Made by a program: the position numbers and the translations under genes | Virus record (IMG/VR): IMGVR_UViG_3300027763_000038 | Coordinates: 44,771 to 108,770 of that record | Source: a virus | Length of the DNA: 64,000 nucleotides | Strand: one strand, 5' to 3' | Shown here: positions 29,801 to 32,800 of the stretch, one piece after another | Layout of the letters: each line of letters opens with the position of its first letter | How positions within the stretch are numbered: the stretch's first letter is position 1 | The notes under the pieces: generated by a model | Told to the model about the DNA's origin: nothing | Database searches by the model: none | What the model saw: the letters and a program-made list of their open reading frames with translations, nothing else

Positions 29801-32800
29801 TGTGTTCGTCTAGCTCCAGCACCAGCCCTAACTTCTGCTTCTACTTCTTCATCTGTTAATGTTCCAGCTGCTGTTGCTGCTGCTCTAGCAGTTACTGTTA
29901 ATCTTTCAAGCTCTTCGTCCACCATGCTCAATGCTTCTTGTATCTGTCTGCCATTAACATTGCCTAGTTGTTGTCTTATTCTAACTTCATTACGAGCTTC
30001 TTGCTGAGATTGCTGTAATGCTCTTTGTAGATCATATAATACTGTGGCACTAGCTCCAGCTGCTCTGGCCATTAATATATCAGCATTATAAGCTCTTTCT
30101 GCTTCTGCTGCTGTGGCCTGATATCCTCTTCTTAATAATTGACCAGAACGTGATGATGCTACTCCAAGTTCTGATAATACTTCAGCTAGTTCAGAAAGTC
30201 TTTGTGCTGTATTTCCACTAACTCCTATAGTTTCTGTATTGACCGTATTTGGTCGTGCTGCTGGACCAGCCCTACCACCAAAAAATAGTCTTTGTACAGC
30301 ACCTCCTGTGGCAAATTCTTGGACTCCTCCTACTAATCCACCACTATTAAATCCAGATACTTTATCTGCATGGTTTAGTCTATTAAGAGTTGGTGTTCCT
30401 ATTCTACTGGCAGTCTTTTTATTAATAACAAACTCGCCAGGAGTTAATAGTGCAGGAACAGTGGTGTTTATAGAGCCTCCAGCAGCCTTCCTGTTTAATG
30501 AACTTAGTTTATTTGCTCCGATAGTTTGTACTGCTTTTTTACGAATAACAAAGTCACCAACATTCAAATTAGCAGGAACCGTGTCTTGACTGCCAACTCC
30601 AGGAACTAATCCACCATCGGCGTATCCTCTAGCTTTAAGATAATTACCAATTTGACCTTTTAGTTCAGCAGGGCCGTTGAGTGTTAGTTTAGCATCAGTG
30701 GGGATATTTGGTGGAAGTTTGAAGTATTTAGAAGCATCCTTAAGACCGTCTGGGAAGTCGATACCATAATTAGTAGCAGCTTTATTAGCAATTGGTCCAC
30801 CAAGCTGATGTATAATACTTTCAGCTATATATCCATGAGCATTAGCCTCACCCATTTTTTTACGATCAGAAGCCTTGACCTTTTTATTTGCATAATGATA
30901 AACATTCATTCCTGCTGCTCTTGCAGCATCAATATTTCTCTTATCATCATCAATAAAGGCACCTGGGTTAGCCTGCATATATTCAACTTTAAGTTGAGCA
31001 ATTTTTTCAGCAGTATTATCTGGACCACCAACGCCTTCAAGGTTGCGTATTGGAAGATTCTTACTAGCTAACCATTCACCAATCAAACCCATAGTATTTT
31101 TTGGTCTGGCAGAAATCACATGTAAATTATCAAGTAACTGTGGGGTTTTTCTAACTTGAGCAACAAGAGCTAGTCCTAATTTACTAAGTGTAGCATTTTT
31201 TAAAGCATCCCTTACTTTATCTTTATCAGAAAATTCACTAAATCGTGGTTGTTTTGGATCAGCTAAAATTTTGTCAGCACCAAAAGCTAATGTTCTATCA
31301 AAGTCAGAATATATAGGTCCAACTTCTTTCAAAATCTGCCTGATCTGCATATTTTTAGTTGATTTTGCTGAAACAGCGTTCATTGCTTGAGTCATTCTCT
31401 TAATATCTTTTCCAGCAGCTTCTTTATCTAGAACGCCACTAGTAATTCTAACCTTAACTGGATTTTTTAATCCCGGAATTTCCATTCTATCAGTTGTGGG
31501 AAAAGCTCTTCCTTTGAATCCAGCGGCCCCAAACAAAAGACCATCTGTAGTTGCTTTTTGTATATCAAGATTATTTGCTTTTTTAATACCAGAAGTTTTC
31601 TCTGTATATTTTGCTAAAATTTTATCTTTGATAACTTGTTCTGATGGAGTTAATGAATTTCTTTTCTTTAATATTCTTTGTATATCACCAGCATTTGATC
31701 CAGTGTCTTTAATAACTTCATCTAGAGTAAGAACTCTGAATATATCTGTAGAAGTAGCAGCTTTACCTGATGTTGGTGTTACAATACCAGCATCAACAAA
31801 TTTACGAACTGAACCACCACTGTTAAATCCTGGTACTTTATTTTTTTGTTGCGTTTGTATCCAGCTATAAAACTTATCTTTTTGATTAGCTTCCCAAAAA
31901 TAATCTAGATTACCTAAGAAAACATTAGGATCTTTATCTTTTTTATTATTCTCTTTAAATAATCCATTTTTACTTCCTGCAAATCCAACCTGATTTTTAT
32001 CAATTCTATATCTCAACATTTTACTAACCAAATCGATATCTTCAGTATCACTAGTTTTGAACTTAGCCTCACCAATTTTTTGTATAGCCTGATTTTCAGC
32101 TTTTTGAATTAGATCAACAGGATAATTAGTTTTATTACTAGCTGATTCCCAACCCTGTTTTAATTTAGAGATTATTAAAGTTTCATATGCTTTTCCCCAA
32201 CGATTTTCTGCGCTTCCTAGTTTACCTACCTCAGTTTCTTTCTCTGACACCGCCCTTTTTCTGTTCTTTTGATTTTTAGAAGATTGGATAATATCATCAA
32301 GCTTTGCTCTGTTCTCTCCGCTAACATCGACACCAGCATAGCTTTTATATCTTTTAGAGGTTGAGGCTTTTTCTGATGCCATATCCCAAATCTTTTTAAA
32401 GTCCGCAGGCTTTAAATCTATTGATCTTGGGACTATTCTAATTTTTGCTGAGTCCCCAACTGCTTCTATATTAGTTTTTCCAATAGCTTTCTGGATTGTG
32501 GATGATCCATCTCTTGTTAGCAATTGATCAATAGTATAAGACTGAGTCAATCCACCATTACTAAATTTTTGTATTCTACCACCATTTGCTTTATTAAGCC
32601 TATGAAGATTGTGAGCACCAATAGCTTTAACAGCACTTTTACGGATAACAAATTCACCAGGAGTTAATCTTGCAGCAATACTATCAGAATCTCCTTGACC
32701 GGGTACCAAACCACCAGTAGCAAATCCTGGGGCATTATTTCTTCTGCCTCCTCCAGTAAAACCTCTACCAAAACCACTAGCAAATTGGGTAATAGCTGAA

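Follow-up and report, generated by a model that had tools for sequence, protein, structure and literature searches.

Phage tail tape measure proteins (TMPs) are regarded as rulers and channel formers that sometimes also carry a cell-wall hydrolase. Can such a protein bring an enzyme of a different kind into the host? The question is raised by a stretch of viral DNA of 64,000 nucleotides (the window), comprising positions 44,771–108,770 of the IMG/VR record IMGVR_UViG_3300027763_000038. The record is 108,770 bp long and was judged 73% complete; the window has a G+C content of 34%. Its minus strand encodes a predicted giant TMP, in which an earlier note, made from the letters alone, had picked out the four motifs of a haloacid dehalogenase (HAD) superfamily phosphatase. 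We put at about 0.6 the probability that residues ~985–1146 of this TMP form a catalytically competent, Mg2+-dependent HAD phosphomonoesterase: an optional TMP cassette that would be delivered at infection and would act on a nucleotide-type substrate.

HAD motifs in a giant tape measure protein

The identification of the 5,483-aa open reading frame (ORF) product as a TMP, made in the earlier note, is backed by three lines of evidence: (i) a match to PF10145 (PhageMin_Tail) of 76.9 bits, against a cut-off of 33.2, (ii) matches to eight PHROG families labelled tape measure protein, and (iii) the presence of tail-fibre-like genes nearby. Names given to its relatives include "TP901 family phage tail tape measure protein". 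All four HAD motif strings lie within the minus-strand frame of this ORF, and in the order that had been claimed. The features concerned are listed here in window coordinates, with the number of aligned copies of the domain in which each catalytic position is kept.

17842–34293, minus strand: tape measure protein gene, 5,483 aa (P0001), one uninterrupted 16.4-kb frame
33148–33726, minus strand: PF10145 N-terminal tape-measure domain, residues 190–382 (Pfam match)
30856–31341, minus strand: predicted HAD-fold phosphatase domain, residues ~985–1146 (motifs, profile and predicted structure); local profile envelope at residues 986–1144
31288–31314, minus strand: motif I string IYSDFDRTL, residues 994–1002
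31291–31305, minus strand: motif I core D997-F-D999-R-T1001, with putative nucleophile Asp and acid/base Asp (D997 131/131, D999 131/131, T1001 130/131)
31102–31125, minus strand: motif II string LHVISARP, residues 1057–1064
31102–31113, minus strand: motif II core S1061-A-R1063-P (S/T 131/131, A 131/131, R 131/131, P 123/131)
30979–30993, minus strand: motif III string LKVEY, residues 1101–1105
30988–30990, minus strand: motif III K1102 (127/131, the remaining four being alignment gaps)
30910–30960, minus strand: motif IV string AFIDDDKRNIDAARAAG, residues 1112–1128
30946–30951, minus strand: motif IV D1115-D1116, Mg2+ ligands by analogy (130/131 and 131/131)

The 131 copies come from related giant TMPs and were aligned to the family profile; their identity to the window domain spans 24–77% (median 33%). 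A smaller alignment of 84 copies was also used, both for conservation and for profile comparisons. Within motif IV, N1120 is kept in 111 of the 131 copies. Between motifs I and II there is a conserved D1007, an aromatic residue at position 1021 and D/N1023, all plausible specificity determinants. Motif I was not picked from among many candidates, since the pattern DxDx[TS] occurs only once in all 5,483 residues of the TMP. That the motif set reflects more than chance is borne out by the recovery of 83 representatives from among 1.84 billion proteins, by the near-invariance of the catalytic residues and by the HAD fold of two structure predictions.

Since this near-invariance persists at a median identity of only 33%, the domain appears to be an enzyme under selection for catalysis, rather than a fold that has decayed or serves structure alone. 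A HAD-like fold kept without catalysis, as a structural or binding module, would sit well with the failure of any curated hidden Markov model to recognise the domain, but strikes us as very improbable: D997, D999, the S/T-A-R of motif II and D1116 are invariant in 131 copies, with K1102 and D1115 close to it, whereas identity elsewhere in the domain falls to 24%. Pseudo-enzymes normally lose their catalytic residues.

Predicted fold and structural neighbours

Two AlphaFold models of the region were obtained, using alignments built from related loci in IMG/VR and JGI metagenomes: model 1 covers residues 975–1170 (20 sequences) and model 2 residues 975–1235 (27 sequences). The predicted local distance difference test (pLDDT) score of the core is 86–95 in both, and in model 1 a strand at model residues 20–22 lies just ahead of motif I. 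In both models, residues ~985–1146 are predicted to adopt the HAD Rossmannoid alpha/beta fold that the earlier note's assignment implies.

A Foldseek search of the PDB returned 36 matches at E<1e-3; among the matches listed, all are HAD-fold proteins, with AphA near the top. A VIA-align structure search, run independently of Foldseek, gave 89 chains at Z≥8 for model 1, mostly HADs. The highest-scoring of these is the T4 Pnkp 3'-phosphatase (5uj0_B; Z 13.2, root-mean-square deviation (rmsd) 3.1 Å, 127 of 142 residues), followed by Pnkp1 (4xrp_A; 12.6), T4 PNK (1ltq; 11.8), AphA (10.3) and generic HADs (9–10). The ranking was repeated with model 2 (Z 12.5, 11.9 and 11.7), where plant VSP, AphA and class C acid phosphatases come next at 10–10.9. 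Thus, the closest solved structure in both models is a Pnkp phosphatase, with other HADs at Z 9–10.9. The top matches in BFVD, which holds predicted viral structures, are PNKP phosphatase domain proteins together with phage Pnk, phosphatase and 5'-nucleotidase proteins.

The earlier note had described the domain as a capless HAD. The HAD part of this description stands; "capless" is approximately right. The span from motif I to motif II is 64 residues, versus 46 in T4 Pnkp, and the model puts two short helices there, so that the domain as modelled would not be strictly capless.

Pnkp-type phosphatases stand 2–3 Z units above the second tier of neighbours in both models, which argues against an explanation that the second tier itself brings to mind: that the phosphatase acts in the periplasm or membrane on a sugar-phosphate, a lipid-phosphate or an extracytoplasmic nucleotide, and so aids the TMP in crossing the envelope, as muralytic TMP domains do. 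The proteins of this tier are periplasmic or outer-membrane ones (AphA at Z 10.3–10.4, plant VSP at 10.9, class C enzymes at ~10), and the high place of AphA in Foldseek points in the same direction. Moreover, the phosphatidic-acid-bound LNS2 domain of Nir2 scores Z 8.7–9.2, two family members have weak LNS2 Pfam matches (E 0.09), and the established enzymatic domains of TMPs—T5 pb2, TP901-1 and the mycobacteriophage TM4 motif—act in the periplasm. Yet the acid phosphatase family PF03767 is without a match, the significant sequence-family matches are to phage nucleotidases of the cytoplasmic type, and no benefit for entry is known to come from removing a phosphate. On balance, we consider an envelope role unlikely.

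Placement among sequence families

By sequence, the nearest relatives of the domain are phage nucleotidases. Six of 27 divergent family members match phrog_2643 ("5'-3' deoxyribonucleotidase"; E 2.5e-5 to 3e-4, nearly full length), and four of the 27 match phrog_8630 ("nucleotidase", the family of Lactococcus phage 949 ORF52; E down to 5e-5); these PHROG names are annotations, not experimentally established functions. The window's own copy has no significant match to either family. In hhalign, the 84-sequence profile reached a probability of 82% with the Lactococcus phage 949 nucleotidase; for the family profile against single sequences, the probabilities were 1.4–4.7% for T4 PseT, 7% for T5 Dmp and 3.7% for AphA, with the motifs paired nonetheless. 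There is also a weak match to phrog_415 ("polynucleotide kinase"; E 0.02–0.03), and one of 20 family members matches Pfam HAD_2, weakly (E 0.32). Single-sequence searches of PDB sequences and of phages by tblastn gave no significant match for the HAD segment. Neighbours in the ESM Atlas are all small viral HADs (Acid_phosphat_B, Phage_T5_dNMPase, DUF2608 and HAD_PNKP). A weak phrog_2643 match in a 3,277-aa ORF of Lactococcus phage 949 fell through when compared with the cassette profile.

Both structure and sequence point to one clade of small HADs, in which the known members use nucleotides or nucleic-acid ends as substrates. Judged by profiles, the TMP domain falls into none of the named HAD families; it represents an undescribed one, encountered almost exclusively within tape measures.

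A number of results weigh against the reading of a virion-delivered phosphatase with a nucleotide-type substrate. Firstly, no curated profile recognises the window's domain, so that its assignment rests on motifs plus predicted structure. A Pfam scan of the window's copy, as a single sequence or otherwise, returned no family; TIGR01509 in NCBIfam remained below threshold (20 bits versus a cut-off of 29.4) and matched motif IV only; a profile search of PDB sequences gave E 0.36 at best, again a motif IV match, and a second profile gave nothing. PF25109 (HAD_PNKP), with which T4 PseT itself scores 199.8 bits, has no match at E≤10 in the genome, and neither does PF03767 (Acid_phosphat_B) at the same limit. 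Secondly, the Foldseek TM-scores are moderate (0.45–0.5). Thirdly, the best structural links are to Pnkp and the best sequence links to phage nucleotidases, a divided indication of the substrate class. Fourthly, no isolate phage among 50,697 records carries the domain. Lastly, a folded domain of ~160 aa, present in three or more parallel chains, would be hard to fit in the tail lumen, and so the virion may contain the HAD domain in an unfolded state, or processing may take it off.

The kinship with T4 PNK and RNA-repair HADs asserted in the earlier note holds for structure, where Pnkp and Pnkp1 come out on top, and fails for sequence, where PF25109 has no match and the hhalign comparison with T4 PseT is not significant. 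Its proposal of a nucleic-acid end-healing enzyme or nucleotide phosphatase is likewise divided: the structure is Pnkp-like, while in sequence nucleotidase PHROGs, and not PNK, come closest, and the partners of a repair pathway were not found. The P-loop kinase family PF13671 (AAA_33) is absent from the 108.8-kb record, as is any match to RNA_ligase (PF09414); at 73% completeness, such absence is no proof. A search for Rnl1 (PF09511) also gave no match in the record, but its control gave no signal either and the result is uninformative. Two loose Walker-A-like strings occur in the TMP, at residues 2896 and 3380, far from the HAD domain. With neither a P-loop kinase nor an RNA_ligase family member found, full T4-style heal-and-seal RNA repair is unsupported. 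We therefore regard it as decidedly improbable that the domain clears 2',3'-cyclic phosphates and 3'-phosphates from tRNAs cut by an anticodon nuclease as one step of such a pathway, even though T4 Pnkp and Pnkp1, a subunit of the Pnkp1/Rnl/Hen1 RNA-repair complex, are the solved structures nearest to it, and even with the weak phrog_415 match; to the missing partners are added the silence of PF25109 and the hhalign probability of less than 5% against T4 PseT.

An optional cassette in related tape measure proteins

The 83 representatives were obtained with residues 960–1180 as the query, among 1.84 billion cluster representatives; 61 of them have E≤1e-10. Nearly all are proteins of 2,000–7,900 residues in which the match typically lies 900–2,400 residues from the N-terminus. 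Among 32 cassette-bearing relatives listed with precomputed Pfam annotation, PF10145 is present in 31 and a HAD annotation in none. When the N-terminal 560 residues were used as the query instead, at least 810 giant relatives were found, and the HAD cassette is present in 24 of the 81 (30%) that were found via the N-terminus and not already via the HAD domain. Among these relatives the position of the domain ranges from residue 948 to residue 2804, and one TMP of 7,122 aa (P0023) has two copies, at residues 2284–2433 and 3488–3642. In relatives without the domain, homology to the window protein picks up again where the HAD domain ends on its C-terminal side, near residue 1146. Since 24 of 81 relatives carry the domain, its position varies and homology resumes at its edge, it is an optional, movable in-frame cassette, as expected for accessory cargo. 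No relative with at least 80% flank identity and without the cassette was found that would mark its exact DNA boundaries in the window genome. An apparent partial HAD domain in P0125, seen in a BLAST alignment, was not upheld on re-check.

Other TMPs of the clade have different precomputed Pfam domains (P0126, P0035, P0110 and P0121; for example, the PF03496 ADP-ribosyltransferase exoenzyme in P0126), and EF-hand families occur in several of these giants. These differences suggest varied cargo in one scaffold. One related TMP (P0129) carries an NCBI name that assigns it to a Sphingobacteriia bacterium metagenome-assembled genome, a weak hint that the hosts are Bacteroidota.

Two kinds of module border the domain on its C-terminal side:

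30610–30852, minus strand: E...D...[DE]xK module directly after the HAD domain, residues 1148–1228 (conservation)
30304–30615, minus strand: GG...PGEFV/GDFV repeat pair, C-terminal boundary of the cassette, residues ~1227–1330 (motif scan)

The second belongs to a repeated motif, GG...(T/S)D(T/S)(V/I)PA.L(T/N).G(E/D)FV...A, of which the TMP has eight copies (residues 543, 1246, 1283, 2524, 3574, 4728, 5073 and 5343). The copies punctuate the protein, marking off unrelated segments; the nearest one before the HAD domain is at residues ~520–590.

The 80-residue module between domain and repeat pair is itself well conserved (n=83): position E1158 is E in 73 and Q in 10, D1179 is kept in 82 of 83, [DE]1200 in 83 of 83 and K1202 in 82 of 83. 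It follows within 60 aa of the domain in 125 of 130 HAD copies. We considered whether the two make up a phosphatase-nuclease bi-domain unit and rejected this as a specific pairing, given that the module also occurs in HAD-less TMPs and that its pLDDT is low. It was found in 168 of 189 TMPs, 39 of them without HAD, which makes it, on its distribution, a generic tape-measure module—no HAD-specific partner—upstream of which the HAD domain appears to have been inserted. Its fold is not confidently predicted by AlphaFold (pLDDT 35–60), and the ESM Atlas yields weak tape-measure leads only (0.82–0.84).

A second, similar E...D...E-x-K stretch (AYE..., PVD..., GEAK) lies upstream, at residues ~640–770 (window ~31980–32380, minus strand). 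It falls in a region, residues 565–820, that is common to only two of the relatives examined (P0003 and P0055), is far from the HAD domain in P0055, and has a weak Pfam match to DUF7897 (E 0.075).

These modules and the cassette's distribution bear on whether the domain leaves the virion at all. It might instead serve the cell that makes the phage, or act in cis while the tail is assembled; for example, its target could be a phosphorylated assembly intermediate, or the domain could be cleaved off before the TMP enters the tail. A variable position, and absence from ~70% of independently sampled relatives, form the pattern of accessory cargo and not that of an assembly requirement; nor does anything show processing in the window TMP. 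We accordingly think a role in assembly quite improbable, while granting that a globular domain would be poorly suited to the tail lumen, that the eight GG...PGEFV modules could be processing or docking sites, and that lambda gpH is proteolytically processed.

Proposed mechanism and delivery

Residues were assigned on the basis of the catalytic roles in T4 Pnkp (PMC3592404). This transfer is based on the shared order of the motifs and on hhalign, which pairs motifs I, II and IV. By this analogy, Asp997 would be the nucleophile and form the aspartyl-phosphate, with Asp999 as general acid/base; Ser1061 and Lys1102 would contact the phosphate, Arg1063 would help to hold it, and Asp1116, with Asp1115 beside it, would hold Mg2+.

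Activity, delivery into the host and substrate we infer by comparison with known proteins. TMPs occupy the tail lumen and are ejected before the DNA, so each virion would bring a few enzyme molecules to the host envelope or cytoplasm as infection begins; the phage probably carries the optional cassette into its host as a ready-made enzyme. The injection and immediate action proposed in the earlier note would follow from these known properties of TMPs. The substrate would most likely be a nucleotide-type phosphomonoester, because nucleotides or nucleic-acid ends are the substrates of all its nearest relatives, whether by structure or by sequence: the T4 Pnkp 3'-phosphatase, T5-type and other phage nucleotidases, and class B/C acid phosphatases. 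As only a handful of molecules would arrive with each virion, a low-copy target, such as a nucleic-acid 3' end, would be favoured over bulk nucleotide pools.

A more specific form of this proposal is that a Pnkp-like phosphatase is ejected with the TMP as a virion-delivered effector and acts, in the first seconds of infection, on a low-copy nucleic-acid or nucleotide target. Candidate targets would be 3'-phosphate or 2',3'-cyclic-phosphate ends left when a defence nuclease of the host cuts, or the termini of the phage genome as it enters. We offer this form tentatively, as possible with the odds against it.

Within a very large clade of giant TMPs, in which at least 810 relatives share the N-terminus, roughly a third to a half contain this putative phosphatase with its active site intact. 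Its recurrence suggests that phages also use the TMP to bring in ready-made, non-muralytic enzymes before phage gene expression. If so, it would be the first known case of a tail tape measure delivering a phosphatase, and giant TMPs would be modular carriers of swappable enzymatic cargo. The family is invisible to Pfam and NCBIfam, and the cassette has for that reason gone unannotated in thousands of metagenomic phage genomes. We found no description of a HAD or phosphatase domain in a tape measure in the open-access literature, and tape measures and phosphatases are both absent from a survey of polyvalent proteins delivered in virions (PMC5512222).

Neighbouring genes and other features of the tape measure protein

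Elsewhere in the window are the tail-fibre-like genes noted above and four large ORFs:

40125–41057, 43796–44950 and 60902–62824: tail-fibre-like genes
44966–57331, minus strand: ORF of 4,121 aa
2–6328, minus strand: ORF of more than 2,109 aa
6335–11803, minus strand: ORF of 1,822 aa
13475–17842, minus strand: ORF of 1,455 aa

Almost none of the four big ORFs around the TMP has a family match. The 4,121-aa product has zero PHROG matches, and the 1,455-aa product has just a sub-threshold match to an ice-binding beta-roll. A tail sheath family was not found in the record, which is 73% complete; this fits a non-contractile tail, as weak evidence from an incomplete record.

Two further observations concern the TMP. 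Its C-terminal third has a single HExxH string, HELGH at residue 4609 (window ~20455–20469, minus strand), which may be the motif of a small zincin-like peptidase. Transmembrane-like stretches are limited to two, both weakly hydrophobic, at residues 1697–1715 and 3752–3770.

Comparison with known systems

The 3'-phosphatase of T4 Pnkp/PseT (5uj0, 1ltq; PF25109), together with Pnkp1 (4xrp), is the best structural match to both models (rmsd 3.1–3.3 Å over 127–128 of 142 residues). T4 Pnkp and the TMP domain share the order of motifs (DxDxT, S-x-R, K, DD) and a small size with little or no cap. They differ in four respects: (i) there is no significant sequence similarity between them, (ii) the TMP domain has an extra helical insert between motifs I and II, (iii) no kinase is fused to it or encoded near it, and (iv) T4 Pnkp is a free cytoplasmic enzyme, whereas the HAD domain described here is embedded in a virion tape measure.

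Phage nucleotidases (phrog_8630, phrog_2643 and the T5 deoxynucleoside-5'-monophosphatase Dmp) are the families closest in sequence. The Lactococcus phage 949 nucleotidase has the same T-A-R-P type of motif II string, and T5 Dmp shares both a T-A-R motif and a G-x-x-D-x-x-x-Y stretch between motifs I and II, although the comparison with Dmp reaches only 5.6–7 bits and a probability of 7%. Unlike the TMP domain, these nucleotidases are free proteins, expressed early and made in many copies.

Class B and C acid phosphatases and plant VSP (AphA; PF03767) resemble the domain in structure (Z 10–10.9) and in having a T-G-R type motif II with an Arg at +2; they act on nucleotides, as the HAD domain would. 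They are, in contrast, secreted oligomers with signal peptides, and PF03767 itself finds no match in the domain.

With respect to its carrier, the closest parallels are TMPs with embedded lytic transglycosylase or peptidase modules—those of T5 (pb2), TP901-1 and mycobacteriophages—in which the enzyme is encoded in frame and released at infection. The HAD cassette follows the same in-frame principle; where the known examples are cell-wall hydrolases, the giant TMP of the window would carry a phosphatase.

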